Shown: positions 2,844 through 40,970, counted from the first letter of the stretch. The stretch: 64,000 bases of DNA from Candidatus Microgenomates bacterium (GCA_049519355.1 JBEKQV010000003.1:19646-83645); one strand, 5' to 3'. Numbers and translations: made by a program. The notes: generated by a model from the letters alone, not told the origin.

Positions 2844-2888
2844 GTATAAGTTAAGCTGTTATTGAGTATAGGGAGCGGGAGATTAATG

Positions 2889-3515: not shown

Positions 3516-3520
3516 TTAGG

Positions 3521-4510: not shown

Positions 4511-4522
4511 GGTATATATTCT

Positions 4523-20951: not shown

Positions 20952-23900
20952 TTAATCAAGCTTAAATGATACATCAGTTGTAAAAGATGGGGATGTGACA
21001 TTGCATCTTATTGCCGGGCATTCTTCTGTCTTAATGATATTCCCGGTTGATGGATTAAACCACTGTATTTCTCCCTCACTTTTTGTGGATATTGTTAAAG
21101 TAAACGTTGTAGGGGTAAACGGGCTAGAATAGTGATAAAAATACCCCGCATTAATACTGTCTGAAATTAGTCCGTATCCTCTTACTCCAAATTTATCGAG
21201 TGCATATTGAACACTTTTTGAATCTAATGGAAATGATTGTGAGAAATTTTGGAGTATGCGGGTATATGACCGCTCTACATCTCCTAAATAAATATTTGCG
21301 TTTAAATTTTCCCCCACTTTTATGTTGGTGGAGTCGGATTGATTCCAAAACATAAGTATGCCTTGTTGAAAGAAAGCTGTCCATGCACGAATTCGCATAC
21401 GATCTGCAGACGTTTGATCGTCGTTGGATTGGTAATTGCCCTGCTCTGCAAAGACCACTGGCTTTGGATAATTTTCGAATTGTTGAATGTGCTGGACAGT
21501 CGTTAAATCGGACTGCGATATGTTTTCGGTTTCATACCAGTGTGGGGCGATAATGTCCGAATCTCCGTAGTTATAAGGTTCTGAGCTTATGCTTATTGGT
21601 CTGTTTTCATAGTCAAGTGACCTTATTTCATCGGTAAGAAGCGTTGAAGTTGAGTCGGGGACGATAACCTCGTTAGCCAATTCCCAAATGTCAACATATG
21701 CGCCATATCTTGCAAAAACATAACGTATGTAAGACGTAAGTAAATATTGGGTGGCGGGATCTTGTGAACCTTTGAAGGGTATATCAAATCCAAAAAGGGT
21801 TAACCATACGTGGATATCATTATTTCTTAAAGATTCGACAAGGGTATCTCCGATTTTACCCTGAAGAATTGAATATTCAGTTGGAAAACCGAATTCATTC
21901 CAAAGTCCCATAGATGAGTTCAGCAAACTCCAACGAAACATGTTGAACCCCGCGCCGGCCGGGCCGTATGCGGAAATGTAATCATTCAAAGAGTTAATTT
22001 TGTCGCTTCTAAAAGAATTTGTGTAGCCGAATCCGTTTGGATTGGCGAGTGGAGTGCTGTTTCCGATTGCCCAATCGTCTAGTGGGGTACCGTCGTAATT
22101 GAAATCAATCATCGTATCTCCTATGCCCAATCCGTTAAATATGGTTTTACCATCAGTTGTCAAACGTTTAGGATTTGTAAGATTTGTACGTAGGTAGAAA
22201 TTTGAGGTATCAGTTGTTGATGTCAATTCACCGGTTTTTGTTAAGGTTTTACCATGAGGCACCCAAATTATTTTCCACGTCCATTTTCCTTTAAGTGGAG
22301 GGTTGAAGCGGACTTTCCATATATTTTGATCGTAATAAAATCCCGGTATTTCAACCACTCTTCCTGATTCATGAGTAAATACTGCTGTTAAGTCCGCCTC
22401 CCGCCACGGATTTACAAAAGTTCCACTCGATTTTAACGTCAACTCAAAAACGTTAACACTTGCAATTTTTGTGAATGATTGGGAAACTTCAAATTGCTGA
22501 TCACCGGAAGTTAAATCCGGTAAGCCGGTATTATCATTGATCTTGTAAATTACGCCATCGGAAGTGGCAAAAAATATGTATTTGCCGCTTAGATACGGGT
22601 CTATGTTAGAACTTGTAGGGGCATTTGCAGAAAATTCCCAAGATGTTTTCCCTGTACCCCCGTTTATATAAAAAAGATCACCAGACTGATTGCTTACAAA
22701 ATAATCTGGTGTAAACGGGTTTAACCACCCAGGTATAAGTCCCGCTAACACGGGTTTAATAAGTGCTGGGCTATTAACAAAACCCAGGCTTGGTACTTCT
22801 GCTGATTTTTTCCCGGATGCAAGGGATAATGTGATAGCTTTTCCGTCTTGACTTGTCAGCATCGCTTTGGATTTCCAGAATGAGGGATAATTTAAACCTT
22901 GTCCGAGCTCGTCTGACTGCCAGATAATTGCTCCAGTTTTACCGTCTCTTCTAACAACCGTTCCGTCTTCATGCACCTCAAAATATGCAATTGGTCCTAT
23001 TGAAAACCAATTGTGAATATAGTTGTTTATATTGGCTAGGTATTGCAATATCGGGTTATCAGAGGTTGAGAAAGATGACATTACTGTTGTGGATGAAATC
23101 GGGGATCCGCTTGTAACTTCCCAGAGGATTTTACCGGTATATTTATCAAGGGCTATAGATTTGTTGGAATTTGTGGCTATAAAAAGATATTTGCCGTAAA
23201 GTTCAGGGCCGTTGGTCATAAGGTCACCAATATCGGTTTTCCATAAAATCTTGCCTGTATTTAGGCGAAGCGCATAAAGTGTTTTATCGCGGCTGGCAAC
23301 GTAAACAGTATTGTTTGCTACAGTTAAATCGCCGAAGTAATATATTCCCCAACCGTTAATTACGGAAGAGAGGGTATATAAAGGTTTTGGGGTAAATTTC
23401 CATAAGAGTTTTCCGTCGCTTAGTCTCAGAGCGCTTAATGAGCCGTCTTCGCTTGCAGCAAGGACGTAGTTTTTATAGATTGTAGCTTTTTGAAAAAAGT
23501 ACTGATTGTCTGTCGAAACCTGCCAAATCACTTTTTGATTTCCAATATTTATAAGCCAGACCTTATCGTCAGAAATTGCCAGGATGTTATTTCCGGATAT
23601 TGCTTGTGGTGTTACATTACCGTTTAGATCAAGAATTTGTGTTTTTCCTTGTATTGAGGTATTCGTGAAGTATAGTTTTTTATCATTCGTTCCAAAAATT
23701 AAAGTGTTATCCTTTTTAAACAGCTGACCTTGTATTTCACCATCAGCGACGAACGAGGACCATGTGTTTGAAGATCTTTCATGTATAAATAAAAATATAC
23801 CAAATAGGAGTAGACAAAATCCAAGAAGTGCAAGTATTTTATTATTGTACCTTTTGAAAAAGGTTGAGGTTTTGCGAGGCTTAGACATAAGGGTATTATA

Positions 23901-24974
23901 AACTGACAAGGTTTGCGTTGCCATTCTTTTCCAACTGAATTCTTTAGCTCTTTTTTTACCTCTGGTTATAAGTTTATTTCTTAAGGGTTGATCTGTGGTA
24001 ATTTTTAACATAGCGCTAAAGATTTCGCGGGTTGATGTGGGATTTATCAAGATGGCGGCGTTGCCAGCGACCTCTTTCGTGGCGCCATAGTTTGAAGTAA
24101 TGACGGGACAACCGCAATTCATTGCTTCCAAGATAGGAAGACCAAATCCTTCGTAAAGAGAGGGGTATAAAAAGCAAGTGGCTGATTGATACATTTTTTT
24201 TAATTCATTATCGTTGGGAGCTATTATTATTTTTATCCAATCAGATATTGAATAAATTTTAGCTTGTCGCAGAAAGTGCGCTGCCTCTTTTTTCGTTGAG
24301 ACTATTACTTTCAGTTTCTGTTTGTTTTTAAAATCTGGTGGAAATTGTGAATATGCGGAAAAAATGGTTTTTAAATTTTTTCTGGGAGAAAAATCGCCCA
24401 TGCATAAAAAGTACTTATTTTGAATTGCTTTACTTCCGGTGTCTGTAAAAATAGGGGAGACTGCTTCATGTATGACCCGTATATTTTTTCGCATTTTCCA
24501 TTTGCTTAGATATTTTTTCAAATCGCCCAGTGTATTTTTAGAAACAGAGATAAGAACTTTCGAATTTCGGAATAGAAAATATCTTGTTAACTCCGAATAA
24601 TATCTTTGTAGAAAATATTTAATACTTCTAAATGTAGGGTACACGGTTCCCAAATCCAGGTCATGTACCGTGGTAACTGTGTTTGGATATTTCCACAAAA
24701 TTGAGCCATATGGTTCGGTGTTGTGAAACACGTCTACCATTTCTTTTCGTACAGCAATCGGTAAAAAGAACTGACGTTTTAGTATTGGGAAATTTGGTAT
24801 CTTTACAGTTCTGAAATTCTTTTGATCGGGAATAACTATATTTTTTGATGCAAAAAGAATATATGTATTTATTTTATCTATAGAGGCGAGACCGTTTATA
24901 AGTTCTTCTACATAGCGTTTTGTCCCATGTTGATAAGGTCTTGTTAAAGCGTTTACATCTATACCTATTTTCAT
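20952..24974 (-). CDS. Multidomain 1340-aa protein: N-terminal GT4 glycosyltransferase, TM helix, PQQ-like beta-propeller repeats, C-terminal GH-A (GH5-like/DUF4038-like) glycoside hydrolase fold
   Basis: GT4 E-X7-E region YEGFGLPILEAMNCGCPVITS. Hydrophobic helix ILALLGFCLLLFGIFLFI. Repeated GK(I/L)LW(K/E) propeller blades. GH-A acid/base-like VDIWELANEV and nucleophile-like VVFAEQG motifs. Confidence 0.7.
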   Translation of the reverse strand: MKIGIDVNALTRPYQHGTKRYVEELINGLASIDKINTYILFASKNIVIPDQKNFRTVKIPNFPILKRQFFLPIAVRKEMVDVFHNTEPYGSILWKYPNTVTTVHDLDLGTVYPTFRSIKYFLQRYYSELTRYFLFRNSKVLISVSKNTLGDLKKYLSKWKMRKNIRVIHEAVSPIFTDTGSKAIQNKYFLCMGDFSPRKNLKTIFSAYSQFPPDFKNKQKLKVIVSTKKEAAHFLRQAKIYSISDWIKIIIAPNDNELKKMYQSATCFLYPSLYEGFGLPILEAMNCGCPVITSNYGATKEVAGNAAILINPTSTREIFSAMLKITTDQPLRNKLITRGKKRAKEFSWKRMATQTLSVYNTLMSKPRKTSTFFKRYNNKILALLGFCLLLFGIFLFIHERSSNTWSSFVADGEIQGQLFKKDNTLIFGTNDKKLYFTNTSIQGKTQILDLNGNVTPQAISGNNILAISDDKVWLINIGNQKVIWQVSTDNQYFFQKATIYKNYVLAASEDGSLSALRLSDGKLLWKFTPKPLYTLSSVINGWGIYYFGDLTVANNTVYVASRDKTLYALRLNTGKILWKTDIGDLMTNGPELYGKYLFIATNSNKSIALDKYTGKILWEVTSGSPISSTTVMSSFSTSDNPILQYLANINNYIHNWFSIGPIAYFEVHEDGTVVRRDGKTGAIIWQSDELGQGLNYPSFWKSKAMLTSQDGKAITLSLASGKKSAEVPSLGFVNSPALIKPVLAGLIPGWLNPFTPDYFVSNQSGDLFYINGGTGKTSWEFSANAPTSSNIDPYLSGKYIFFATSDGVIYKINDNTGLPDLTSGDQQFEVSQSFTKIASVNVFELTLKSSGTFVNPWREADLTAVFTHESGRVVEIPGFYYDQNIWKVRFNPPLKGKWTWKIIWVPHGKTLTKTGELTSTTDTSNFYLRTNLTNPKRLTTDGKTIFNGLGIGDTMIDFNYDGTPLDDWAIGNSTPLANPNGFGYTNSFRSDKINSLNDYISAYGPAGAGFNMFRWSLLNSSMGLWNEFGFPTEYSILQGKIGDTLVESLRNNDIHVWLTLFGFDIPFKGSQDPATQYLLTSYIRYVFARYGAYVDIWELANEVIVPDSTSTLLTDEIRSLDYENRPISISSEPYNYGDSDIIAPHWYETENISQSDLTTVQHIQQFENYPKPVVFAEQGNYQSNDDQTSADRMRIRAWTAFFQQGILMFWNQSDSTNIKVGENLNANIYLGDVERSYTRILQNFSQSFPLDSKSVQYALDKFGVRGYGLISDSINAGYFYHYSSPFTPTTFTLTISTKSEGEIQWFNPSTGNIIKTEECPAIRCNVTSPSFTTDVSFKLD

Positions 24975-26128
24975 AAATAAATATTCTTTATAACTTTTCC
25001 GAAAGAAGCTAAAGCCTGGGCTTCGGAAAATCTTTTAGCGAGTTTAATGGATCTCTTTCCCAATACTTTTCTGTTATTGGTCGGCATACTAAAAAATGTA
25101 TTTAGCTTAAGTAGGATTTCCTCCGGGGAATCGTTTTTAAGAATAAGGGTGCTGTCTAGTTTGCCGAGTAATTCCTTAAGATTTCCTACGGGTGTCCCAA
25201 TTACGGGAGTTCCTGAAGCAAGCGATTCTAAAACGACAAGCGGCGAATTTTCCAACTTTGACGGAAGTACTAATACATCTGAGTTTTTGTAGTATTGAAT
25301 TAAGTTGTGCTTCGGTGGATCTTTTTTAATTCTTGTGTTTTTTTTGACTCCAAGATGTTTGATTAGGGAAATCATCTTTCTTTCCATCCCCGGTTCGGCA
25401 CTTGAGGAAGGGTACACTACAAAGAGTAGAGCTTTTGAGTTTGTCTGAATAAATTTAGCGAAAGCTTTGATTAAATTGAGTACACCCTTATATTCAAACA
25501 GTCTTCCGGCATATAGAATTACGTGACGGCCCACCGGTACTTTGTTATTCCTGGAATAAAAACAATTGGTTACTATATTCTGAACTATATATATTTTTTT
25601 AGGATTTAGCAGTGGGTTATTGGTCAAAAGATATTGCTTTGCGTATAAGGACGGGACGATGACGGCATTTGAAAATGACCATGAGAATTTTTCAAAAAGT
25701 TTTGTAAAAATTTGTCGATAGTTATATTTTTGTATTCCGAGATCGGACACACTTCTTGTTCCGTGGAATGTAAATATCACCTTTGCATGTTTTCCTGAAA
25801 CGCTTATTGCCGACAACGCCGTTAGGTAATCGGCGCTCATAATAAAATTAATATTGTTTTGTTTAAGCGTTTGCTTTATTTGTTTTCGAACTTCTAAAAA
25901 ATTGTTGACGTTGTTTGGAAGAAAAGTAAACCTACCTTTTGAGTTAATTTTTTTTAGAAACGATTTTTCTCTGAAAAGCTTGAGATCCGGTTTAAATTTT
26001 TTCTTAAAGGCAATTAGATAAAAGTTGGATCCTGGGTTAGCTGCTTTAAATGCCTCATAAAGTCTTGTTAATGCCACCCATTCACCTCCTTCAGTCAGCT
26101 CGGCTAGAACAAGAAAATTATATTTCAT
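24971..26128 (-). CDS. GT4 glycosyltransferase (GT-B)
   Basis: PSKLENSPLVVLESLASGTPVIGTPVGNLKEL E-X7-E motif and typical N-terminal GT4 domain. Confidence 0.8.
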   Translation of the reverse strand: MKYNFLVLAELTEGGEWVALTRLYEAFKAANPGSNFYLIAFKKKFKPDLKLFREKSFLKKINSKGRFTFLPNNVNNFLEVRKQIKQTLKQNNINFIMSADYLTALSAISVSGKHAKVIFTFHGTRSVSDLGIQKYNYRQIFTKLFEKFSWSFSNAVIVPSLYAKQYLLTNNPLLNPKKIYIVQNIVTNCFYSRNNKVPVGRHVILYAGRLFEYKGVLNLIKAFAKFIQTNSKALLFVVYPSSSAEPGMERKMISLIKHLGVKKNTRIKKDPPKHNLIQYYKNSDVLVLPSKLENSPLVVLESLASGTPVIGTPVGNLKELLGKLDSTLILKNDSPEEILLKLNTFFSMPTNNRKVLGKRSIKLAKRFSEAQALASFGKVIKNIYL

Positions 26129-26152
26129 TGCGATATAATGCCCCTAGCATAA

Positions 26153-27676
26153 ATGAAGTCGGCAATTTTAACAAGTTTAAAAAGGCGAATTCTATCAAGT
26201 TCTGAAAACTATATTTTATTTGTTTTTTTTCTTGCGGACCTAACTTTTCTTATAAAAATTGTTGGCGGAAATGCATGGGTGACTATTTTTTTCTTTCTTC
26301 TTCTTATTGTATTGATTTGGATAAAAATACGTGACTGGGCGCTTAGTTCGTTACTTGTTACAATTTTCTCTTTTCAATTTTATCTACCGAATAAATATTA
26401 TCCCATTGAGGTTTTTAGACCATATGAACTGCAGCCGGGTTTTGGACCTTATTTTTTGAGTTACGGCATAAATTTGGAAAATATTTTTTTGTTAATTACG
26501 CTAATCCTGATTATCAGGAATCTAATTTTAAAAAAGTCGGTTTTTCCAAAAAAAAGTATAACTTACATTTTACCGGCGATATTTTCCGCGATATTGTTTT
26601 TTCTTATTTCTCTTTATTCCTCTCTTAGATTTTCGCCATATTCAAGTTTGTCAGTAACATGGCTTTTACAGGACATACAGTTGTTTTTAGTTGGTTTTTC
26701 GGTATTTTATGTATTTTTTAAAAAACGCAGTGATTTAAAATTGATTTCTCCTGTAATTCTTTCATCCATAGTTCTTCAATCAGCCGTTTCGATTATCCAA
26801 TTTGTAAAACAATCTTGGGCGGGTTTACCTATTGAGAGCTTTATTGTTGAAACGATTTATTACGGGTCTCCTGATGCTGTGCATTCGTATTTTCGTGTTG
26901 CCGGAACATTCGGACATCCGAATCAATTGGCATTAATTCTTTGCGCAATGCTTGTTTTAATTCTCCCGCAAGTTATAGGAGAGAGAAAACCTGTTTATAT
27001 ATTGGGGTCATTTATTACCGTTTTGGTAATTCTTTTGACCCAAAGCCGTTCGGGGTGGTTGGCTCTTTTTGTGGTTATTCTTCTTACGACAATCATTTAT
27101 AGAAATGAATTGTTAAAACCCGTTTCCAAACTGGCGATTAGACGAATAGCTGTCTCGATTACACTTGTGATTGCGGTGACGCTTGCGGTTGCTGTTCCCC
27201 GGATTGTTGCAAGTTTTAACGCGTTTTATCAAAATGCCGGTTTTCCTCTAAGAATTGAAATGGCTAAAGAAGCAATCTTGGCAATAGCTCAAAACCCTTG
27301 GCTGGGGTATGGGATGGGTACCAATGAACCGGTTTTGTTCAGGTTATTTCCAATGGGTTACATTTATTCATTTCCAGCACCCATTCATATGGCATATTTA
27401 CAAATGATTTTGGAGAGTGGTATTCTTGGATTTCTTTTCTTTATGTTTCCTTTTGTTTATATAATCAGGTGTATAATCAACCGGTTCTTGTTATACGGAG
27501 CTAAAAAAATAGCAAGGGCCAAAAATTATATTTTTATTACACTCGCGGGGATTTCAGCTTTTGGTTCTTTTTATCTTTTCCTCCCATATGAGGGATTCAG
27601 GGAGTTTGCATATCTGGGGATAATATTCGGTTATGGTATGATATGTCTCCAGCCATTTAAAGCTTTTCCAAAATGA
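26153..27676 (+). CDS. O-antigen ligase / Wzy-like polytopic membrane protein
   Basis: About 12 TM helices and the Wzy_C-type motif LTQSRSGWLALFVVILL in a periplasmic loop. Confidence 0.55.
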   Translation: MKSAILTSLKRRILSSSENYILFVFFLADLTFLIKIVGGNAWVTIFFFLLLIVLIWIKIRDWALSSLLVTIFSFQFYLPNKYYPIEVFRPYELQPGFGPYFLSYGINLENIFLLITLILIIRNLILKKSVFPKKSITYILPAIFSAILFFLISLYSSLRFSPYSSLSVTWLLQDIQLFLVGFSVFYVFFKKRSDLKLISPVILSSIVLQSAVSIIQFVKQSWAGLPIESFIVETIYYGSPDAVHSYFRVAGTFGHPNQLALILCAMLVLILPQVIGERKPVYILGSFITVLVILLTQSRSGWLALFVVILLTTIIYRNELLKPVSKLAIRRIAVSITLVIAVTLAVAVPRIVASFNAFYQNAGFPLRIEMAKEAILAIAQNPWLGYGMGTNEPVLFRLFPMGYIYSFPAPIHMAYLQMILESGILGFLFFMFPFVYIIRCIINRFLLYGAKKIARAKNYIFITLAGISAFGSFYLFLPYEGFREFAYLGIIFGYGMICLQPFKAFPK

Positions 27677-28506
27677 AACACATAACTATCTTTAAGAGAA
27701 AAGTGACGTATTTTGATTTTATTTTGGGAGGCGTATTTATAATAGTAATGCTTGGGGTTTTCCTGTTTTTATATAGAAAAAACGAATACGTAAATATCCG
27801 TGTAAAAGTAACGGATCAGGATGTTCTTTACGCATCTACCGATCCAAAAAGCTGGTATGCTAACCGATTTGAAGTGGGGGATATTGAATTGGACGAACTT
27901 GGGAGGACGATAAGCCAGATAACCGGCGTTGAAACTTTTAATATGAGTCCGGATACAAAAGCTGTTTATCTGGACATTAAGATTAAAGCGGTTTATGACA
28001 GACGTACAAAATTGTATTCGGCGCGGGGAATCAATCTAACTTTTGGAAACACGATCAGATTTAATTTTTCTAACGCCTCTTTTTATGCATTGATTACAGA
28101 ATCGCCTGGCACATTAAATCAAAAAGATCTAACGGTTGAGGAAAAGGAAATAACCGTTTTGGAACGGGGGCCTGCTTTAAACTCTTCAGCCGATTCGATT
28201 GAACCCGAAGTTTTGGAAAAGATTAAAAAGGGAGATGAGATTACCGATTCAAACGGAGATACCTTGGCGGAGGTCGAAAACGTGGTCCTTAGGCCCGGCC
28301 AACGGGTTGTACAAAACGCTGCTGGAAACCTTCTTCTCAGATATGACCCTTACTACAAGGATGCAATAATTACACTTAAAATACGGGTTGAAAAATATAA
28401 AGGAGATGAATTTGTTTTTGATAATGTTCCTTTAAAGCTCGGTTCCTATTTACCGTTAAATTTCACTTATGAAAGTATCTGGCCTGTTATAACGGATATT
28501 AAATAA
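27673..28506 (+). CDS. Hypothetical membrane-anchored protein
   Basis: N-terminal TM helix, no recognisable catalytic motifs. Embedded in the GT locus and start-stop coupled to the preceding gene. Confidence 0.3.
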   Translation: MKHITIFKRKVTYFDFILGGVFIIVMLGVFLFLYRKNEYVNIRVKVTDQDVLYASTDPKSWYANRFEVGDIELDELGRTISQITGVETFNMSPDTKAVYLDIKIKAVYDRRTKLYSARGINLTFGNTIRFNFSNASFYALITESPGTLNQKDLTVEEKEITVLERGPALNSSADSIEPEVLEKIKKGDEITDSNGDTLAEVENVVLRPGQRVVQNAAGNLLLRYDPYYKDAIITLKIRVEKYKGDEFVFDNVPLKLGSYLPLNFTYESIWPVITDIK

Positions 28507-29637
28507 CTCTTCCAGAATTTTAATATACTTTGTGAGGATTTTTTCTTGGAGAAAGTCGGCCGCCCTAATTTTTGCCATGTTAGAGTAATGTTTGCGCTTC
28601 GTTCCGTCGCTTAGAAGTTTAACAATCGCTTCAGCTAGGGCGTTAGAGTTGCCGACGGGGACTAAGATACCGTATTTATTCTTGCCAATAATTTCAGAGG
28701 GCCCGTAATTGCAGTTTGAAGCAACTACCGGGATTCCTCCTGCCATTGCTTCCAAGATAGAAAGGGGAAGTCCTTCCCATTTTGTTGAAAGAACAAAAAC
28801 TTTTGAGCTGTCCAGTAGTTTTGTCGGATTTTGCACCCAACCGAAAAACTTAACTCTCTGGGATATACCGAGTTTTTCGGCTAGGGACTTTAACTGATTT
28901 TTTAAAGGACCATCCCCAACTAACCACAATTCCGAATTGGGTATTTTATTTGCAACAATTTTAAACGCCCTAAGAAGCGTCACGTGGTCTTTTTGCACAT
29001 CCAATCTGGCTGTTGAAATAACAATTTCTTTCCCGCGGGTTTCAACTGCCGTTCTCTTTTCAAAGTAGCGTGCAGGTAATATTTCTCCGATTGAGGTAGG
29101 GATTTTCCTCAATTTTAAGTCTCTGGAAAGGTCGCGCGACATTTTTTTTGCGACTGTCACAACAGCATCTGACTTATTCAGAAAAAGTGCCAAAGAATAT
29201 TTTACGGGTTTGCGTAAGTACTTACCCAGTCTGATGTTTATCACCTTTGTCAGGTTGTTGTGGATAACACTTATTGTTTTATATTTGAGATTGAACAGAG
29301 ACCTAACTGCTTCTGAAATTAGGATTGAATGCGGGTCTGAAGAAAGTACAATATCTGGCTTAAAATTTTGAACCGCTTTCTTGAACCACATTCCTTCTCT
29401 GATAAACATCTGTATATTTTTCCGGTTAAGACTGTATTTATCGGGAATTTCCCGTTTTTGTGAGAAAAACGAATATTCTCGGATATTGATAGTTCTAAAT
29501 AAGGGTTTTTCCAGAACAAGGACCTTCATAATTAGTTGACCCGGCTTAAACATTTTCTTTAGACCAAGGAGGCCTTCCGCATACGTTCCGGTTCCTCCGT
29601 CAACACTTCTTTGAAGAACTAATAGTTTTAACTTCAT
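28456..29637 (-). CDS. GT4 glycosyltransferase (GT-B)
   Basis: WEGLPLSILEAMAGGIPVVASNCNYGPSEII E-X7-E motif. Confidence 0.8.
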   Translation of the reverse strand: MKLKLLVLQRSVDGGTGTYAEGLLGLKKMFKPGQLIMKVLVLEKPLFRTINIREYSFFSQKREIPDKYSLNRKNIQMFIREGMWFKKAVQNFKPDIVLSSDPHSILISEAVRSLFNLKYKTISVIHNNLTKVINIRLGKYLRKPVKYSLALFLNKSDAVVTVAKKMSRDLSRDLKLRKIPTSIGEILPARYFEKRTAVETRGKEIVISTARLDVQKDHVTLLRAFKIVANKIPNSELWLVGDGPLKNQLKSLAEKLGISQRVKFFGWVQNPTKLLDSSKVFVLSTKWEGLPLSILEAMAGGIPVVASNCNYGPSEIIGKNKYGILVPVGNSNALAEAIVKLLSDGTKRKHYSNMAKIRAADFLQEKILTKYIKILEELFNIRYNRPDTFISEI

Positions 29638-30308
29638 TGACGGATTATATAATGTCCTTCCACTTCACTGTGTAAGTAACCGACCGGCTTGGGAATATTA
29701 AGTCTAATACTGTCGTTGCGGTATGCTTCACACAAAATATTTGCCCAGCCCTTGGTGAATTTCAGACAGTAATTCATTTCGCGGCTTACATCATCCGATT
29801 TGCCGACAGAAAAATAATAATTAATAAGCTCTGCATGAAACTCAGGGAATTCGGGATTATTATAGATGGCCTTGCTAAGTAGAGTAGGGGTTAACTCAGG
29901 GTGACCATTATTGTATGCGATTAAGGCTAAATTGTAATAAATTCGGCCCAGTCCCTGATCTTCGTTGTTTTTTAGATCACTGGCAGTAAGGCTCCCGAGA
30001 TAGTTTGTAAAAAGAATTTTAAGACTGTCATCGTTGGGAATTGTGAGGGCTTTGTCAAAATCTGCTGGAAGAAGATTACGGTATGGATCATATTCTCCAT
30101 ATATATTTATCCGCGATGCCAAAGACAACTCAGTCATTGCCTTTTCGAAGTTTCCGTTTTTGGCGTCGGATATTGTGTTTTCGATAAAATATTTATTTAA
30201 GAATATTGAGCTTTGTGAAGCGGGATCCGATAAATAATTGACGATTTCGGACACAAAAAAAAGGAGGGTAATACCCAGGATAATAAGGAATATTTTCATT
30301 TTAGTCAT
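29634..30308 (-). CDS. Hypothetical signal-anchored protein with helical (TPR-like) repeats
   Basis: N-terminal TM/signal MKIFLIILGITLLFFV. The rest is helical-repeat-like with no catalytic motif. Confidence 0.3.
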   Translation of the reverse strand: MTKMKIFLIILGITLLFFVSEIVNYLSDPASQSSIFLNKYFIENTISDAKNGNFEKAMTELSLASRINIYGEYDPYRNLLPADFDKALTIPNDDSLKILFTNYLGSLTASDLKNNEDQGLGRIYYNLALIAYNNGHPELTPTLLSKAIYNNPEFPEFHAELINYYFSVGKSDDVSREMNYCLKFTKGWANILCEAYRNDSIRLNIPKPVGYLHSEVEGHYIIRQ

Positions 30309-30333
30309 TCCAGCTATACTATACTTTAGTTAA

Positions 30334-31395
30334 ATGAGAATCCAATCGCGAATACATCCTTGGGACCACTTCTTTCTTGTCAGCACATTCATAATTTTAA
30401 TATTAATTGGAATCGGAATCGATACAAGTTTTATTTTGGTCCTGGTATTATTGAATGTTTTGGCTGCCCTTATTTATAAATATATAAATATTGGGAAAAT
30501 AGAAATTCCCAAAAACTACTTTCTTTACGTGATCTTTTTGTTGGTTTTGCTGGTTCATACTCGGCTTTTCCATGGCAATATCCTTTTTCTCCAGCTTTTG
30601 TCTATAGGCGGCTTATTGTGGCTTGAGGTTTATAATTTCAGAAGATTATTTGCGAAATATTTTGCTCCGATATTAATTACTCTGGGAATGCTGATGAGCG
30701 GAATATATATTTATTCTCTTAGATTTCCGGTAAATTTGCCCAATTTGTTGGCTTTATTCAAAGCGCCTCCAGATTTAGCCAGGCATGTTGTTATCGGTGA
30801 TCTCTGGGCCGTAATTTTGGTGGCAGTTTTTTATTTATTTTTTAGAAAGAAATCGTATTTTTACTTACCCCTTATTGGTTTGGGGCTGTACTTCCTGGCA
30901 ATTTCATATTCCCGCTCGGCGCTTCTTGCACTCGCTGTCGGGATTTTCTATATTTTTCAAAAGTCGGTAAACCGGAAAAAACTTAAGAATATAATTTTGG
31001 TTTTGTTTGTTATTATTACGGCTCTTTTTGTTTATTTCGCTACTGTAAAAAGTCTTTTGTTCTCACGCGTATACTTTTTTCAGGCAATAATCGGATTTTT
31101 CCGTTTTCCACTTGGAACGGGGATTGGTAACTTTACTTATTTGACCAACTTGGCGGATTTGGTGCATGATTTACCCCTCGAGGTATTTTCGGGGATGGGA
31201 ATTTTTTCGGTGGTTTTTCTGGTCTGGCTTTACAAGATTTTGAAGCAAATGTTAACGGTTAAGAAAATTAACGTAGAAGCGGTAGCTATATTTCTGGCGA
31301 TTTTAATTGATTTTTGTTTTTATACAACCTATACGATCCCTATATTTATCGGGATATGGTTCCTAAGTCTGGCGCTTACAGAAAATACCACCTAG
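30334..31395 (+). CDS. Second O-antigen ligase / Wzy-like polytopic membrane protein
   Basis: Multiple TM helices and ISYSRSALLALAVGIFY, similar to the Wzy_C motif in 26153..27676. Confidence 0.5.
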   Translation: MRIQSRIHPWDHFFLVSTFIILILIGIGIDTSFILVLVLLNVLAALIYKYINIGKIEIPKNYFLYVIFLLVLLVHTRLFHGNILFLQLLSIGGLLWLEVYNFRRLFAKYFAPILITLGMLMSGIYIYSLRFPVNLPNLLALFKAPPDLARHVVIGDLWAVILVAVFYLFFRKKSYFYLPLIGLGLYFLAISYSRSALLALAVGIFYIFQKSVNRKKLKNIILVLFVIITALFVYFATVKSLLFSRVYFFQAIIGFFRFPLGTGIGNFTYLTNLADLVHDLPLEVFSGMGIFSVVFLVWLYKILKQMLTVKKINVEAVAIFLAILIDFCFYTTYTIPIFIGIWFLSLALTENTT

Positions 31396-31404
31396 AGTGG
31401 GGGA

Positions 31405-31971
31405 CTAAGGATTAACTTTTAAAGGAATGATTTTTTCGGAGATTCCTTGCTCACCTTGGGTAGAAAGACCAAAAGTTATGTTAAAATCTCCGGCTTCTGT
31501 AGGAATACCCCCGATTGTACAAGTTACGTAAGAGTTTTTGGCTGCTATTTGTGAAATATCAGGGCTATTAAATACGGTTTGACATGAGGTTATTTGCAAA
31601 CCCTGAGGATATCCTGATATCAAACTGCCCGAAAGTTGTACATTGAGATTATAAATTGCACCAGATATTGTTGTCTCGTATTGTTGATTAACTGTTGCGG
31701 TTTGGAGTTGCGATGTGTACACAAAAGGGCCGTTATCACTAAGATTATTATTACTTTGAGGTACCGCGACCGGGGTTGGGTTATTTTGGCTCGTTGTGTT
31801 TTGATTTATAGCAGGTTTGCCGGTTCCGGTTCCTTTAATTTGGGTCAACAAGTAAAACGACACCAAAATCAGGACAATGACTAGAATGCCTAATAAAATA
31901 TATAGCCATTTTCTGTTGTTCCCGTTGCCGCTTTCTGTCGTATTCATTGGAGTGGGGTAGGTGTTTTCCAT
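31405..31971 (-). CDS. Hypothetical secreted/signal-anchored protein
   Basis: N-terminal Asn-rich segment then TM helix WLYILLGILVIVLILVSFYLL. Extracellular domain without recognisable motifs. Confidence 0.3.
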   Translation of the reverse strand: MENTYPTPMNTTESGNGNNRKWLYILLGILVIVLILVSFYLLTQIKGTGTGKPAINQNTTSQNNPTPVAVPQSNNNLSDNGPFVYTSQLQTATVNQQYETTISGAIYNLNVQLSGSLISGYPQGLQITSCQTVFNSPDISQIAAKNSYVTCTIGGIPTEAGDFNITFGLSTQGEQGISEKIIPLKVNP

Positions 31972-32056
31972 AACTTCCTACTAATAATATAGCACAACCA
32001 CATCTTTTTCTACCCAGCTTGCGCTACGTGCTTTAGGTTTGTATTATAAGAGTATA

Positions 32057-33439
32057 ATGTCTGGTGTTATGACCAAGGAGGAAGAGTCGGTTACTATCCA
32101 ACCAATCAGGAGGATGGACGCCTTCGGCTTTGTGCCTGATATAATTCTTGAGCTTCCGGCACCGGAGAAAAAGGTGTCTGCCGCTATTGATAAAGAAGCC
32201 GGTAAATTGTCCCGAGCCATCGATCCCAACCCTGTTTTAATGTATCTGGTTCTAGAATCTAACCCCACACTTAGGGGATTGATGGAATCCGTAGGGAAAG
32301 TAGACCGTCCTCCAGAGTTTCAAAATCTGGACTTAATGAGTCCCAAAGATCGTGCTCAAAATGCGGCCTTTGCTTTAGGAACAATACGTGCAGCGGTAAA
32401 CTCAACTGCAAACACGGATTTTAAAAAAGAGCTAGAAGCGGTTGATAAAGAAATAACAGCAGGAACCGGAGCCGTAGTTTCCGGAACGAATATTGAAACT
32501 CACAAAAAAGGATCGGGTTTTATGAATAGAGCTCTTCGTAAATTACCCATAAAAGTTTTGGGTTTGACTACCATTGCAGCTTTTCTGGCAGGATGTGCCG
32601 GAACCGCGGTAGCATCAAAGACCCATGAACCTGGAGGAACGAGTACACAAACTAGTGAAGTTTCATTAACCCCAACGGGTGTTGCGACAACTCCGGCCCC
32701 CAGTGAAACGCCAACTAATACATCTACTCCACCTTCTACGGAAACTTCAACTGCGACAGAAGTACCATTTGAACAACTGGTTTTGCAAACAAACCCGGAA
32801 AATTTTGCTAATTATACTGAAATTACACTCGACGATATTCAATCCGGCCGCGCAAGTTATTGGGAACATCAAGCTTATACAAAAGGCGAGCTTAAACAAT
32901 TTGGGCCAGATGTAAACTTCACGCCAATAATTTCATCCGAATATGACAATAGTGACTTGGGTGGGGGAAAATTTGATGAAGCAGTGCCAAACCCTGACGC
33001 TCTCAAGGGAACACCAGAACTTTTTACAATGATACCTGAAACATTTTATGTTATGAAAACTGACAAAGGTGATATGTGGGTTATGGGTATGGCTGTTTTA
33101 AACCAAGATAATTCCGTTTCTTTTATGCATCTCCTGTTCGATCCTAAAGTTTGGAATGGATCGGATGTAATGAAGCAGCAGTATTTAAATGTTGCTAAAG
33201 GCACGAGAATGGTAAGTATTTATTACCGCCCAACTAATTGCGATAAGGCTCCCTCAACATGGATAGCTTTTCATCCAATTTATGGTAGCTACGATCTTTC
33301 TAGGACTTGCCCTGTGTATCAGAGTCAAGATAATCATGAAAGTATAGATAATGCGCTTGACTCCTGGGCTTCATCAGGACAAGTATCCTCTGATATGGAA
33401 AAAGACCTCTTCATTGCGGGGTGGGCTTTTCAGCCATAA
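32057..33439 (+). CDS. Hypothetical Thr/Pro-linker protein with an internal lipoprotein-like signal (possible true start at 32522)
   Basis: The long ORF has an internal MNRALRKLPIKVLGLTTIAAFLAGC lipobox-like signal preceded by AAAGGA. Upstream 160 codons are open but lack convincing start context (TTG at 32039; ATG at 32057/32069). Confidence 0.35.
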   Translation: MSGVMTKEEESVTIQPIRRMDAFGFVPDIILELPAPEKKVSAAIDKEAGKLSRAIDPNPVLMYLVLESNPTLRGLMESVGKVDRPPEFQNLDLMSPKDRAQNAAFALGTIRAAVNSTANTDFKKELEAVDKEITAGTGAVVSGTNIETHKKGSGFMNRALRKLPIKVLGLTTIAAFLAGCAGTAVASKTHEPGGTSTQTSEVSLTPTGVATTPAPSETPTNTSTPPSTETSTATEVPFEQLVLQTNPENFANYTEITLDDIQSGRASYWEHQAYTKGELKQFGPDVNFTPIISSEYDNSDLGGGKFDEAVPNPDALKGTPELFTMIPETFYVMKTDKGDMWVMGMAVLNQDNSVSFMHLLFDPKVWNGSDVMKQQYLNVAKGTRMVSIYYRPTNCDKAPSTWIAFHPIYGSYDLSRTCPVYQSQDNHESIDNALDSWASSGQVSSDMEKDLFIAGWAFQP

Positions 33440-33472: not shown

Positions 33473-35665
33473 ATGACCACTGCCAAAAATATACTAAAAT
33501 CATTCAATCTGGTAAGATCTTCAGTAATTTTTCTGGTAGTTATTTGTTTATTTGTACTTTATAGCCTGAGCAGTTCATCTTTAGTTTATAGTTGCGGTCC
33601 TCTTCATTGCAGTCAAGGATCTCAATGCTCCAGCTGTTGCACCGGTAAAGCAAGCTGTACTTATGCTTGCAATACTAATACAGGAAATTGTTCCTGGAGT
33701 GTCGGTAACGCATGCACGAGTTGGTGTGCTTGTGGTGCGTGCAGTGGTGGTTATTGCGGGGAATTTTGCTGTGACGGTGTACATAACGCTGACTATCGAA
33801 TTCTGACATGTTGTGTACCGAAATGGGGTAATTGCAGTGTTTCTTGTGGCGGGGGAACGGAAAGCGATGGTTGCGGGCACTCCAGAGGGTGTAATCCTCA
33901 ACCATGTTGTACTGCTCCCTCCACCCCTACCGTGACTCAAGTTTCAACGAATAACTGGACGGTAACCTGGACAAAAGGAGCCTCGGGTAAAAACCAGGCG
34001 ATTTATATCGGAACGGATGAAACCGCTGTTTCAAAAAGTTGTCCTAATGGCACGGGAGAGGGGACGGGTTGTGTAGTCAAGAACGAAAGTTTGGATCCAA
34101 ACGCCCAGAGTTACAGTGTAACCGGTTTAGCGGCGGGGACATTTTACTATTTTATGTTGAAAGAGTCCTGTGGCAGTGCCTCCGCAGTTACCTCTTTGCT
34201 TACCTCTTGTGATTTATCTCCAAGTAGTTTGACGCTTAATTTTGGACAAACAGCTACAGTTTATACAAACGTTGTTTCCTCTCCAAACATTACAGAGGTT
34301 GACTATTCCGTTTCTACAGTAAAGCAGACGGTAGATCCGAATTGTGGTCAGTATTCAGATGCCCACAGTTGTTCGCAAAACACTCACTGTAATTGGGTAA
34401 CAACAGGTGGATCATGTTCAGGACCTCAGAATTGTACGAACTACATGGATTCAACTTCATGCCAGAATCCGCCCGCAATTTGTTCGGGTACAACCGGGAC
34501 GTGCATCGGCGGGGGAACGTGCAGTTCCCAGCGGACTTCGGTTTCCTGCACTAGTGTTAAAGGTTGTAATTGGGAAATAATGGACTGTGGTGTTTATCGG
34601 GGAAGTCAGGCAACATGTATTCAACATCAATCATGTCAATGGTTAGCCAATTATTGTCAATGGCACGCCACAAGTGATTGTGAGGGAAACCCATATTCGG
34701 TTCAGGTACCTGGTGCTGTCAGTGTTAGTCCGACTGCCGACCGATCATATGCTTATCAAACCACAGCAACAGGGGTAAGAGTCGATCCTAGCGGTTCAAA
34801 CACAATCACGAGCTATGTTTATAACGGGGTTACTCCTATTTGTTCCAGTGTTATACACGTAAGCGTTTTACCGCCCAACGCTTGGTGGCAAGTCAAAGAC
34901 GGAGACGTAATAACAAACGGAGATCTAAAAGCTAGCCTTCCTGATTATGGGAATCCATTATTTGATGTTGCCGGCGGAGGAGGCTTTCCGGGGGTTCCAA
35001 GTTATGGTGGTTCGACAGATTTGACTGCTGCAAATGTATCTTCAAAAAGTTGGTTAGTAAATTCAGATTATTCTTCGACCAAACTTTATAATTCGACTTT
35101 CTTTTTGAACGCTATTCCCCCCGACGTAAAAATAAATAATCTTGGTTCAACGTTCGATCAAATAGCATTTAATAATGCAACCGCTGATTCGGACGGCTAT
35201 GTTTGGTTTGAGTACGACGGTTCTCAAAACGGGGGGCTCGACTTGACTATACCTTCGAATTTGGATTTCGGAAGCAATAAAGTGGTTTTGCTTGTGAAAA
35301 ACGCAGATCTTGATATTAGCGGAGATATTAATTATACCGACGGGCAGGGATTTTTCCTTGGAGTTACGACGGGAAATATCGTTGTTGATCCTTCTGTCGG
35401 GGGTGGGGGAGCACCCAACCTCGAGGGGGTTTATGTTGCTGATGGGGAGTTTGTCACGGGAACAACAGGCGCCCAGGACGATTCTCAACTTTGGATTCGA
35501 GGTAGTGTCGCCGCATATGGGGGTTTCAATTTGGAAAGAGACCTTGGCCCTGATCTTAACGGAACGACTCCATCCGAACTTTTTGAATATGCTCCCGAGG
35601 TGGACTTGATGTTTCCAGCCAAACTCGGGGGATACATTATTAACTGGAGAGAAGCGGCTCCATAG
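33473..35665 (+). CDS. Secreted Cys-rich surface protein with TSP1-like repeat, FN3-like domain and Cys-rich modules
   Basis: Signal-anchor, then a Cys-dense region including KWGNCSVSCGGGTESDGCG (W-x2-CS-x-SCGGG, as in thrombospondin type-1 repeats). An FN3-like segment follows (WTVTWTKG...YSVTGLAAGTFYYF), then further CxxxC-rich repeats. Confidence 0.5.
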   Translation: MTTAKNILKSFNLVRSSVIFLVVICLFVLYSLSSSSLVYSCGPLHCSQGSQCSSCCTGKASCTYACNTNTGNCSWSVGNACTSWCACGACSGGYCGEFCCDGVHNADYRILTCCVPKWGNCSVSCGGGTESDGCGHSRGCNPQPCCTAPSTPTVTQVSTNNWTVTWTKGASGKNQAIYIGTDETAVSKSCPNGTGEGTGCVVKNESLDPNAQSYSVTGLAAGTFYYFMLKESCGSASAVTSLLTSCDLSPSSLTLNFGQTATVYTNVVSSPNITEVDYSVSTVKQTVDPNCGQYSDAHSCSQNTHCNWVTTGGSCSGPQNCTNYMDSTSCQNPPAICSGTTGTCIGGGTCSSQRTSVSCTSVKGCNWEIMDCGVYRGSQATCIQHQSCQWLANYCQWHATSDCEGNPYSVQVPGAVSVSPTADRSYAYQTTATGVRVDPSGSNTITSYVYNGVTPICSSVIHVSVLPPNAWWQVKDGDVITNGDLKASLPDYGNPLFDVAGGGGFPGVPSYGGSTDLTAANVSSKSWLVNSDYSSTKLYNSTFFLNAIPPDVKINNLGSTFDQIAFNNATADSDGYVWFEYDGSQNGGLDLTIPSNLDFGSNKVVLLVKNADLDISGDINYTDGQGFFLGVTTGNIVVDPSVGGGGAPNLEGVYVADGEFVTGTTGAQDDSQLWIRGSVAAYGGFNLERDLGPDLNGTTPSELFEYAPEVDLMFPAKLGGYIINWREAAP

Positions 35666-36455
35666 AATCAAGAAATTTTGCTAAAACTTTAACTTCATTG
35701 TTATTCAATTGGGAGAAGGATTTATTTAGAATTTCATCCGGTAGGCCAATGGCCCTTACTTTTCTCCGTGCCTCATTTTTGGTAATATTTTTGTCGAAAA
35801 CTTTCATCAAAACATTTTTAATCATGCCGCCGTACTTTTGGGATAGAATTAATTTTTGATTTACGGAGATTTGGGCTTTTGGCGAGAATTTCAAGATAAT
35901 TGAATCAGTTCCGGGTACAGGCCAAAAAGCTTCTTTGGTAACTTCGGCAATTTTGGATATATTAAAAAAAGCGTTGCAGACGAAGGACAATTCACTATAA
36001 TTAGGATCTTCAGGGTTTTTTAGTTGAGATTGAATTCCAAATTTCTTTCCGACCATTAGAATCATTTTAATTTTCGGAAAGCGTACGATTTTATTAATGA
36101 ACGGCTCCGTGATGTGGTAGGGGAGATTGGATACAATCCAGACGTTTTTACCGGATTCCTTTTTGATAACTCCGTCGAGAATTCCCGATAACGCATCGCC
36201 GAAAAGGACCTCGACATTATTATGCTTTTTAGCCAGTTCTTCCAGAGGTTTTTCAAACCTTTTATCAATTTCTGTTGCTATTACCTTTTTGGCATTTTGC
36301 GATAAAACTTCGGTTAAACGCCCCGTTCCTGCACCGATTTCAATAACTGTCGAATCCTTTTCAACAGTCCGAGACAAGATATTTAGGACTGAGTTATCGC
36401 TAATAAAATGCTGGCCCAAAAGCGGGTTCGGTTTGAAATTTTTGTCAGTTTTCAT
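35640..36455 (-). CDS. ksgA: 16S rRNA (adenine1518/1519-N6)-dimethyltransferase KsgA/RsmA
   Basis: LLGQHFISD, SAM motif VIEIGAGTGRLT and the NLPY motif (VSNLPYHITEP). The ORF-track N-terminal 165-aa extension is rejected; the start is the internal ATG at 36455 (MKTDKNFKPNPLLGQHF). Confidence 0.85.
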   Translation of the reverse strand: MKTDKNFKPNPLLGQHFISDNSVLNILSRTVEKDSTVIEIGAGTGRLTEVLSQNAKKVIATEIDKRFEKPLEELAKKHNNVEVLFGDALSGILDGVIKKESGKNVWIVSNLPYHITEPFINKIVRFPKIKMILMVGKKFGIQSQLKNPEDPNYSELSFVCNAFFNISKIAEVTKEAFWPVPGTDSIILKFSPKAQISVNQKLILSQKYGGMIKNVLMKVFDKNITKNEARRKVRAIGLPDEILNKSFSQLNNNEVKVLAKFLDSMEPLLSS

Positions 36456-40016: not shown

Positions 40017-40970
40017 ATGCCTGCGCCCACAACTAATCATTCCGAGATAGCCCAAAAGGCTAACGAGTTTTTAGAATATCTTCAAGTTGAGCGTGGTGCC
40101 TCTCCCCTAACGATTCGAAATTACCGGCATTATTTGACGAGATTTATGAATTGGATGGAATCGCAAGGAATCCGTGAGGATCTAAAAGATATTAACCCCG
40201 ATGTTGTCAGGAGTTTCAGAGTTTATCTTTCCAATCTTCCCGGAGAAAATAAGGCGCAGATGGCGAGGCGGACTCAGGGCTATCACGTTATTGCCATGAG
40301 GAGCTTTCTCAAGTGGCTAATCAAAAACGATTATTCGGTTATGGCGCCTGACAAAATCGAACTGCCGAAAGTTGAGGAAAGGCAGGTTAAGTTTTTAAAC
40401 GGCGAACAGGTGGACAGACTCCTAAATGCACCGAGTTTATCGACAATTCAGGGTAAAAGGGATAAAGCAATTCTGGAAGTTCTTTTTTCAACAGGGCTTC
40501 GTGTTTCGGAGTTAACTAAACTTAACCGCGACACAATTGATCTTGACCGTCGGGAGTTTGGAATAATCGGAAAAGGTGGAAAAGCCCGGGTTGTATTTCT
40601 ATCCCAAAGGGCGGCCGACTGGCTGATTAAATATATTAATGGACGCGATGATCACTTTAAACCACTCTTTATTCACCACAAGGGTATTGCCGGTCCGGGT
40701 ACGCCTGATGAAAAAATGCGTCTTACTCCCCGATCGGTTCAAAGAATGGTGAAAAAGTATTCCCATAAAATGAAACTACCGGTTGAAGTGACTCCCCACG
40801 TAATGCGCCATAGTTTTGCAACGGACTTGCTTATGGCCGGGGCGGATATTCGGTCGGTTCAAGAAATGTTGGGACATAAAAACATCTCTACAACCCAAAT
40901 CTACACTCATGTTACAAACAAGCAATTAAGAGATGTCCATGAAGCATTCCATGGAAAAGGAGGAAACTAA
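40017..40970 (+). CDS. Tyrosine site-specific recombinase, XerC/XerD type
   Basis: N-terminal SAM-like core-binding domain. C-terminal catalytic R...HxxR...Y: GLRVSEL, HVMRHSFATDLLMAGADIRSVQEMLGHKNISTTQIYTHV. Confidence 0.85.
   Translation: MPAPTTNHSEIAQKANEFLEYLQVERGASPLTIRNYRHYLTRFMNWMESQGIREDLKDINPDVVRSFRVYLSNLPGENKAQMARRTQGYHVIAMRSFLKWLIKNDYSVMAPDKIELPKVEERQVKFLNGEQVDRLLNAPSLSTIQGKRDKAILEVLFSTGLRVSELTKLNRDTIDLDRREFGIIGKGGKARVVFLSQRAADWLIKYINGRDDHFKPLFIHHKGIAGPGTPDEKMRLTPRSVQRMVKKYSHKMKLPVEVTPHVMRHSFATDLLMAGADIRSVQEMLGHKNISTTQIYTHVTNKQLRDVHEAFHGKGGN

Follow-up and report, generated by a model that had tools for sequence, protein, structure and literature searches.

A putatively exported, cysteine-rich modular protein of a Candidatus Microgenomates bacterium with a shortened thrombospondin-like module and a conserved C-terminal domain

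The window analysed here is a 64,000-nucleotide stretch of a metagenome-assembled genome of a Candidatus Microgenomates bacterium (GCA_049519355.1 JBEKQV010000003.1:19646-83645). It contains an open reading frame (ORF) at 33473..35665 on the plus strand, which begins with ATG and encodes a protein of 730 amino acids (aa). A first-pass annotation had described the product as a secreted cysteine-rich protein with a thrombospondin type-1-like motif and a fibronectin type III (FN3)-like domain. Translation and the cysteine positions bore out the ORF and the quoted motifs: KWGNCSVSCGGGTESDGCGHSRGCNPQPCC spans residues 117-146, with KWGNCSVSCGGGTESDGCG at 117-135, CSQNTHCNW lies at 300-308 and CTSVKGCNWEIMDCG at 359-373. 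The 3' end of the ORF overlaps the convergent ksgA (RrnaAD) gene, which stops at 35640, by the 26 bp already reported. The same 26-bp overlap occurs at an orthologous locus, L001, whose ksgA product (271 aa, PF00398) is 69.7% identical to that of the window. No second copy of the gene was found within the window, and an Rfam scan of the window gave no RNA element. The domain assignments are collected in Table 1.

Table 1. Parts of the 730-aa protein and the overlapping gene, in window coordinates (pLDDT, predicted local distance difference test; dN/dS, ratio of nonsynonymous to synonymous substitution rates; TSR, thrombospondin type-1 repeat; Ig-like, immunoglobulin-like)
Feature	Position	Strand	Basis
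N-terminal leader, residues 1-40	33473..33592	+	Sole hydrophobic stretch; [AV]-x-A sites before the first Cys in the family
N-terminal Cys-rich region, residues 41-112	33593..33808	+	Holds most of the 8-Cys module; dN/dS 0.14 (residues 41-153)
Short-form TSR-like module, residues 113-146, CCVPKWGNCSVSCGGGTESDGCGHSRGCNPQPCC	33809..33910	+	Paralogue alignments, PDB profile matches, AlphaFold
FN3 domain, residues 147-245	33911..34207	+	Sub-threshold Pfam fn3, family profile, AlphaFold, Foldseek
First half of Ig-like (Big_2-type) beta-sandwich, residues 246-290	34208..34342	+	Alignment with paralogues; pLDDT 87-96
Cys-rich insert in Ig-like domain, residues 291-403 (113 aa)	34343..34681	+	Cys positions; insertion site defined by alignment
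Second half of Ig-like domain, residues 404-467	34682..34873	+	Paralogue alignment; pLDDT 82-96
Family-defining C-terminal domain, residues 468-730	34874..35662	+	Alignments, profile census, AlphaFold, Foldseek
ksgA/RsmA (RrnaAD), convergent neighbour, not part of the 730-aa protein	35640..36455	-	ORF list

The C-terminal domain is the only part common to all homologues. It comprises 263 aa, is free of cysteine and strongly acidic (isoelectric point 4.05 here, family median 4.4), starts with PxWWQVKDGDVxTNGDL and ends with WREAAP (family consensus W-x-E-V-A-P). Nearly all of the 194 family members examined carry the last six residues W-x-E-[VI]-[AST]-P. At E ≤ 1e-3 a profile of the domain matched the representatives of 3,723 clusters (50% identity), 752 of them at E ≤ 1e-30, giving a family of at least 3,723 clusters at this identity level. 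The match reached the last residue in 146 of the best 150 cluster representatives. No relative of the domain was found in Pfam, NCBIfam or PDB sequences, and neither the whole protein nor the C-terminal profile retrieved any PDB sequence. Across this domain of the 730-aa protein and 16 relatives, Pfam at E ≤ 10 returned only marginal DUF7305 and NfeD1b_N matches, one each. DUF7305 was dropped as a remote relative, with only 2 members matched (E 0.07-0.13) and no literature on it. A phage or viral origin was likewise rejected, as IMG/VR and GenBank phages contained no relative. The opening of the domain (residues 468-486, window 34874-34930) shows an invariant WWQ followed by K-D-G-D-V-x-T-N-G-D-L, an Asp/Asn-rich loop that recalls Ca2+-binding motifs.

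The AlphaFold model of the C-terminal domain, built with 73 sequences, reached a pLDDT of 93.7 and a predicted template modelling (TM) score of 0.91. Its first ~105 residues are confidently modelled and mostly irregular and non-repetitive; a predicted beta-solenoid follows, and the helices are short (5-7 residues). The first-pass annotation had noted a beta-rich C-terminal region, which the model supports, but had missed that this region is the conserved domain that defines the family. In Foldseek searches of PDB the top matches were DUF3494 ice-binding proteins (6eio, E 7.8e-3; 4nu3, probability 0.97, TMt 0.48), followed by the ComZ beta-solenoid and tapirins. BFVD was independently topped by three DUF3494 proteins, the best at E 1.7e-3. 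Enzymatic beta-helices (pectinases, GH28 and tailspikes) appeared far down the lists, at E >1 and TM <0.2.

Comparison with these neighbours gives likenesses and clear differences. DUF3494 or type-1 ice-binding proteins (for example 6eio, 4nu3, 6bg8 and Hyperionvirus DUF3494 proteins), the top neighbours in both PDB and BFVD, are secreted bacterial beta-solenoids of similar size that are often fused to Ig-like domains. IBP-1 folds as a right-handed beta-helix flanked by a long alpha-helix. However, the similarity is weak (E 1.7e-3 to 6e-2, TM 0.3-0.48, 8-12% identity), the Pfam model does not match, the first ~105 residues form a confidently modelled, mostly non-repetitive subdomain, and the predicted secondary structure lacks the long flanking helix. 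ComZ of Thermus thermophilus (6qvi) and the tapirins of Caldicellulosiruptor (6n2b, 4wa0) carry a C-terminal or inserted beta-solenoid that binds a polymer, DNA or cellulose. Their scores were marginal (E 0.13-1, ComZ 0.13), and the 730-aa protein has no pilin-type N-terminus. A type IV pilin, considered because of the ComZ match, was rejected: the N-terminus, which opens with MTTAKNILKSFNLVRSSVIFLVV, has neither a class III signal (G, cleaved before F-T-L-x-E) nor a pilin leader.

A hydropathy scan found a single hydrophobic stretch, at the N-terminus, with no second one elsewhere and none at the C-terminus, where the protein terminates in WREAAP. The leader consists of a basic n-region (K5, K9 and R15), a 15-aa hydrophobic core (residues 18-32) and the polar stretch SSSSLVYS, directly followed by the first cysteine of the mature protein. 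An [AV]-x-A site is present in 84 of the 116 family members with a complete leader, and the first cysteine usually stands 1-3 residues further on. Cleavage is likely between VYS and CG in the 730-aa protein and between VYA and IGC in its orthologue. The leader had earlier been called a signal anchor; it is indeed a single hydrophobic segment, but the family [AV]-x-A sites make it probably a cleavable Sec signal peptide. A lipoprotein reading of VYS-C was rejected, since the lipobox is poor and most family leaders end in AXA with the cysteine 1-3 residues later. Pfam, NCBIfam, motif and hydropathy searches found none of the known monoderm anchors in the protein (LPXTG, lipobox, SLH, LysM or a C-terminal transmembrane segment).

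The protein contains 45 cysteines, all N-terminal of W471, while the other proteins of the window have 0-8 each. C25 lies inside the hydrophobic leader, and the 44 that remain could give up to 22 disulfides. The N-terminal region, with 23 cysteines, terminates in the TSR-like module. Residues 61-116 (window 33653-33820) form an 8-Cys module with the pattern CxWSxGNxCTxWC..G.C..GYC..CC, which extends into the TSR-like part and was aligned in five proteins (the 730-aa protein, L001, P0019, P0020 and L007). Neither Pfam nor PDB holds a relative of this module. MAFFT repeatedly superposed its CxWSxGNxCTxWC segment on the TSR-like module, a hint that the two might be very distantly related. AlphaFold gave the N-terminal Cys-rich region a pLDDT of 31-59, and residues 36-115 had almost no alignment depth. 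Because this depth is essentially nil there, the low values in 36-115 and 291-411 carry no information on disorder, and purifying selection argues for structure in both segments.

Searches of Pfam and NCBIfam with the whole protein, six sub-segments and neighbouring genes returned nothing but a sub-threshold fn3 match (PF00041, 20.2 bits, E 7e-4, residues 148-230; gathering threshold 25 bits). The FN3-like domain proposed in the first-pass annotation thus scores under the cut-off of the hidden Markov model, but its identity was confirmed by the predicted fold. AlphaFold placed seven strands between residues 153 and 243 at a pLDDT of 85-96. Foldseek with this model gave 176 PDB matches at E ≤ 1e-3; the top 50 were all FN3 domains (best 3.7e-6), that of bacterial chitinase A1 (1k85, TMt 0.58) among them. 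The family FN3 profile matched FN3 chains only, and fn3 matches in paralogues reached E 4.8e-7. The family-conserved cysteines associated with this domain are 190, 200, 233 and 246, C246 being the first residue of the Ig-like part.

P0003, P0007, P0009 and other homologues have an uninterrupted Ig-like domain, with which both halves of the split one align. Pfam recognised Big_2 (PF02368) in 6 of 20 and in 10 of 74 paralogues and gave no Big_2 match for the 730-aa protein itself. The second half has strands at 416-419, 429-434, 442-451 and 454-466, and its C457 is nearly invariant. The insert that separates the halves contains 16 cysteines in four C-x8-C-x5-C-x6/8-C units (consensus C-x2-Y-x5-C-x5-C-x-W). 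One such 4-Cys unit occurs at the identical insertion site in P0004, and P0080 and P0126 carry the unit elsewhere. The insert was modelled at a pLDDT of 28-39 with an alignment depth of only 2 sequences; its dN/dS is 0.13, and all of its cysteines are conserved in the orthologue.

Family members keep the C-terminal domain at the end of the protein (40-60% identity) but combine different modules in the N-terminal array. Accessory Pfam domains in 74 representatives comprised Big_2 (10), fn3 (7), Hint-type (6), TSP_1 (1) and Laminin_G_3 (1), with no catalytic or carbohydrate-binding module (CBM) families. The Hint or PT-HINT domains, of the intein-like autoprocessing type, were found once or twice near the N-terminus of P0008, P0103, P0112, P0128, P0135 and P0136 (~8%, 6/74), upstream of the stalk and the C-terminal domain, which suggests possible autoproteolytic release or ligation in these members. 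P0133 (731 aa) has a concanavalin-like Laminin_G_3 domain inserted within the C-terminal beta-solenoid, which splits the profile match in two.

Taken together, we propose that the 730-aa protein is a Sec-exported, disulfide-stabilised modular extracellular protein whose most likely shared function is adhesin-like, non-catalytic binding, a reading to which we give a probability of roughly 0.5. After export the leader would be removed, and up to 22 disulfides would stiffen an array of small modules: the 8-Cys module, the shortened TSR-like module, the FN3 domain and the Ig-like domain with its four-unit Cys-knot insert. This array would be joined to the conserved, acidic, Cys-free beta-solenoid. 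Given the constant C-terminal end of the family and the reshuffling of the modules before it, the solenoid is the probable carrier of the shared function, and the Cys-rich, Ig-like, FN3 and TSR-like modules may supply variable length and specificity. The function would be the binding of a repetitive surface, the cell envelope either of a host or of the bacterium itself. This proposal is supported by the nearest structures of the C-terminal domain, all of them non-enzymatic surface-binding beta-helices (DUF3494, ComZ and tapirins), by a neighbourhood of surface-protein and glycosyltransferase/Wzy genes, and by a taxonomy that is mostly Woesebacteria, Microgenomates and Patescibacteria. The adhesin role suggested earlier is plausible.

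Two described groups of proteins resemble this arrangement. Fibrillar adhesins of monoderms share the signal peptide, a stalk of FN3 and Big_2-type domains and a distinct terminal domain, but the 730-aa protein has no LPXTG, SLH, LysM or other known anchor and has disulfide-rich modules in place of long tandem repeats. Cys-rich extracellular proteins of candidate phyla radiation (CPR) bacteria, described in Peregrinibacteria, have been proposed to serve attachment or rigidity; they average ~1,650 aa and were likened to Cys-rich repeats of Myxococcus (PMC4736985). These share a signal peptide, a very high cysteine content and CPR origin with the present protein. The C-terminal domain of the present family is not mentioned in that work (PMC4736985).

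Several points weigh against the binding proposal. If its leader is cleaved, the protein shows none of the known anchor types. Roughly half of the ectodomain (36-115 and 291-411) was modelled at low confidence, and the C-terminal domain had no PDB fold match at E ≤ 1e-3 (TM 0.3-0.48). The invariant charged residues D478, K603, R689, E702, E705 and E727 could equally mark an active site. Every family member is annotated as 'hypothetical' or 'Ig-like domain-containing', leaving no annotated homologue, and no gene partner is conserved outside close relatives. No disulfide-forming enzyme was seen in the 64-kb window. The outward end of the molecule is also ambiguous: the conserved domain could be a distal head or a cell-proximal foot. 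A self-anchor is suggested by its constant terminal position and by the probable removal of the sole hydrophobic segment, whereas the structural neighbours and the stalk-like FN3 and Ig-like modules favour a distal head.

If the foot is preferred, the molecule becomes an adhesin of reversed polarity. The C-terminal domain would then anchor itself in, or be sorted to, the cell's own wall, S-layer or an assembly machine through the W-x-E-V-A-P end, and the hypervariable Cys-rich N-terminal modules, the TSR-like one included, would face outward as a display. We regard this as doubtful, although it is the strongest of the alternatives. The strict terminal position and the invariant last six residues fit it well, the probable cleavage of the leader leaves no other anchor, and a shuffled N-terminus joined to a C-terminal domain of 40-60% identity is the usual pattern of variable passenger and conserved anchor. 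However, the passengers are only small structural modules and never enzymes, no candidate sorting enzyme is encoded nearby, and the domain's acidity (median isoelectric point 4.4) is unlike that of most wall-binding domains, while its structural neighbours are all ligand-binding heads.

A catalytic role for the beta-solenoid is distinctly unlikely. The domain would in that case be a secreted polysaccharide lyase or hydrolase acting on glycans of the host cell surface or on peptidoglycan, with the N-terminal modules as targeting units or spacers. A conserved domain with variable accessory modules is indeed typical of carbohydrate-active enzymes, right-handed beta-helices are common scaffolds of such enzymes (pectate-lyase-like proteins and phage depolymerases), and invariant acidic and basic residues are present (D478, K603, R689, E702 and E705). 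Yet pectinases, GH28 and tailspikes were reached only far down the fold lists described above, and the best matches there are non-catalytic. Furthermore, no catalytic Pfam or NCBIfam family was matched at E ≤ 10, no CBM occurs in the 74 members, and the domain has no phage relatives.

The TSR-like module is a separate question. Canonical TSRs have six cysteines in three disulfides and an elongated three-stranded antiparallel fold, in which a Trp ladder, WxxW(xxW), and an RxR(xR) strand build a Cys-Trp-Arg layered core, as seen in the TSR structures of thrombospondin-1. The module has the core W118-G-N-C121-S-V-S-C125-G-G-G, that is, a Trp-preceded C-S-x-[ST]-C-G-x-G turn, and six family-conserved cysteines (113, 121, 125, 134, 140 and 145). 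Its W-x2-C-S-x-[ST]-C-G-x-G core, followed by a short strand, and its C-N-x-Q-x-C end, which resembles the C-x4-C end of TSRs, recall PF00090 members such as the single-Trp alpha-TSR of the Plasmodium circumsporozoite protein (CSP). In contrast to these, it is bacterial and measures ~34 aa, ~60% of the canonical ~50-60 residues, with ~14-18 residues absent between the third and fifth cysteines. It has one Trp, so the ladder is missing, and its strand B (GTESDG) contains no Arg; because the RxR strand is absent, the layered core cannot form. AlphaFold modelled it at a pLDDT of 89-90 with a two-strand beta-hairpin (128-131/137-140).

Of 198 family members, 15 carry the module, in each case 29-36 residues before the C-terminal domain and sometimes in tandem. 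A long form, WGxWSxCSxxCGGGxQxRTNxCG...CNTQxC, carries WGxWS and RT(R). All six long-form modules (P0015, P0034, P0214, P0225, P0005 and P0103) scored above the TSP_1 gathering threshold of 21.6 bits (22.2-25.2 bits), and the full-length 46-aa module of P0005 matched the whole 49-position model. Among the short forms, P0057 reached 15.2 bits and the others were unmatched; PF00090 at E ≤ 10 matched neither the whole 730-aa protein nor the excised module. Identity between short and long forms is 43-66%, and C, S, C, GGG, C, CN and C are invariant. Used as a profile, nine modules matched 37 PDB sequences, all 37 of them TSR proteins (CSP, thrombospondin-1, CCN3, F-spondin, ADAMTS13, isthmin, TRAP/SSP2, MIC2, properdin, BAI1 and UNC5D among them). 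With 13 short forms only, 25 of 25 PDB matches were again TSR proteins, the match spanning just W..CS.(S/T)CG.G.Q. The strict motif W..CS.SCGGG arose in 0 of 300,000 composition-preserving shuffles of the ectodomain, and a loose version in 146 of 300,000.

These alignments and profile matches identify the module as a genuine but truncated TSR derivative, which is not itself a TSP_1 member although its paralogues can be; its kinship to TSRs is real but indirect, through those paralogues. The motif seen in the first pass is thus not a chance resemblance, but PF00090 support for the protein itself did not materialise. Convergence, with the module as one of many bacterial Cys-rich knots and no evolutionary link to eukaryotic TSRs, is improbable. 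The missing PF00090 match and Trp-Arg layers would agree with it, as would profile matches of only ~15-17 residues and the placement by MAFFT of another Cys-rich segment (CTWSTGNTCTDWC) onto the module. It is opposed by the six long-form paralogues above the curated threshold, one of them over the whole model, by the identity between short and long forms in the same architectural position, and by the exclusively TSR matches and the shuffling result.

Database models of the gene differ from the one used here. The identical protein in NCBI (P0001, annotated as hypothetical, on an 846-kb contig) and the Logan call of the 85%-identical orthologue (P0002) are both 577 aa long and start at the internal V154. 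The omitted first 153 codons (window 33473-33931; L001 5551-6004) carry the signal peptide and 23 cysteines. L001 retains an uninterrupted in-frame ORF of 727 aa. Compared codon by codon with this orthologue, residues 74-153 gave a dN/dS of 0.05 and residues 41-153 one of 0.14 (dS >1), with every cysteine kept. P0003, P0004 and other homologues have leader, Cys-rich region and FN3 domain within one ORF. On these grounds the 730-aa model is, by comparative sequence evidence, the correct one, and the database models miss the export signal and the TSR-like module. It is very improbable that a 577-aa cytoplasmic protein starts at V154 below an untranslated Cys-rich stretch: two independent annotation pipelines picked that start and no obvious Shine-Dalgarno sequence precedes the ATG at 33473, but the frame is open from there, the upstream codons are under the selection just described, homologues run continuously from signal peptide to FN3, and the product would hold 21 cysteines without an export signal. 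The Logan annotation of L001 also adds a spurious 81-aa ORF in another frame. Cys-rich N-termini may be systematically under-called across the family. Used as a homology query, the 129-aa N-terminal region retrieved nothing, probably as N-termini of this kind are absent from public gene models.

The databases and literature searched gave no earlier description of the family, of its C-terminal domain, of the 8-Cys module or of the shortened TSR. The finding matters mainly for a large uncharacterised Patescibacteria family, of at least 3,723 clusters and described in no domain database, and for the bacterial TSR series. TSP1 is regarded as an animal and apicomplexan adhesion domain (PMC3417536). 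For a domain considered eukaryotic, it is unusual that bacteria have TSP_1 domains scoring at the Pfam level together with derivatives of decreasing length. A literature search found no paper linking thrombospondin repeats with CPR bacteria. These bacterial forms offer a minimal TSR scaffold for structural study. Gene callers drop the signal-bearing Cys-rich N-terminus of the 730-aa protein and of its orthologue, and surface-proteome surveys of these organisms may therefore miss exactly such regions.

A lifestyle of attachment to other cells is presumed for Patescibacteria, among which, to our knowledge, few attachment factors are known outside Saccharibacteria. A constant beta-solenoid with reshuffled disulfide-rich, Ig-like, FN3, Hint and TSR-like modules is the pattern expected at a host-symbiont interface. 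More speculatively, and we consider this unlikely as a whole, the C-terminal domain with its W-x-E-V-A-P end might be a Patescibacteria-specific surface-attachment system for host contact, chiefly of Microgenomates and Woesebacteria, with the TSRs as indigenous bacterial modules. If so, a very large, module-shuffled and disulfide-rich repertoire in contact with host cells would share the domain as its constant foot or head. The TSR series (full-length, 40-aa and 34-aa) would then be an indigenous bacterial module class and not purely an animal and apicomplexan invention, which would bear on the origin of eukaryotic extracellular-matrix domains.

Named or titled relatives belong to Woesebacteria, Microgenomates or the 'Patescibacteria group', and some are labelled Gammaproteobacteria or Chloroflexi. 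Several loci are titled 'uncultured Gammaproteobacteria' despite CPR-like synteny. Three family members (L007, at 2788-4711, L022 and L024) lie on contigs labelled Chloroflexia, Chloroflexi or Pelolinea; the GC content of L007 (51.5%) and L022 (47.9%) is above that of the Patescibacteria loci. The L007 copy, split by a frameshift and truncated at its C-terminus, has the 8-Cys N-terminal module of the 730-aa protein. These records mean either that the family reaches outside Patescibacteria or that the bins carry wrong labels.

Synteny with yebC, DUF5656 and ksgA was limited to close relatives. A conserved cassette or partner gene was rejected, as only the close orthologue retains the 466-aa membrane protein encoded upstream. 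The product of this gene (32039-33439, plus strand) comprises a conserved N-terminal part of ~160 aa, a single transmembrane segment with a lipobox-like FLAGC around residue 185, a linker rich in Thr and Pro, and a globular C-terminal part. It matches no Pfam family and shares 58% identity with the L001 orthologue. In L007 this position is occupied by a gene laid out alike, with no sequence similarity. At 31405-31971 on the minus strand lies a gene for a 188-aa protein with an N-terminal transmembrane helix and a small extracellular domain, for which no reliable Pfam match was found and which has homologues in L001 (76% identity) and L027 (34%). Both upstream genes encode predicted surface proteins.

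Further upstream, a cell-envelope glycan cluster (20952-29637) contains a 1,339-aa fusion of a GT4 glycosyltransferase, a PQQ-like beta-propeller and DUF5060, two further GT4 genes, a Wzy_C (O-antigen-ligase-like) membrane protein and a DUF4330 protein. The C-terminal domain is matched twice, at sites ~8 kb apart, on the Woesebacteria chromosome OY970314.1 (L023 and L027). The second match covers 22 residues only and adjoins homologues of the window genes at 29634-31971, a pattern suggesting that paralogues or remnants cluster in a single envelope locus. A tyrosine recombinase gene (40017-40970, plus strand; Phage_integrase with a SAM-like N-terminal domain, E 2e-42), probably XerC/D-like, lies 4 kb downstream of the 730-aa ORF.

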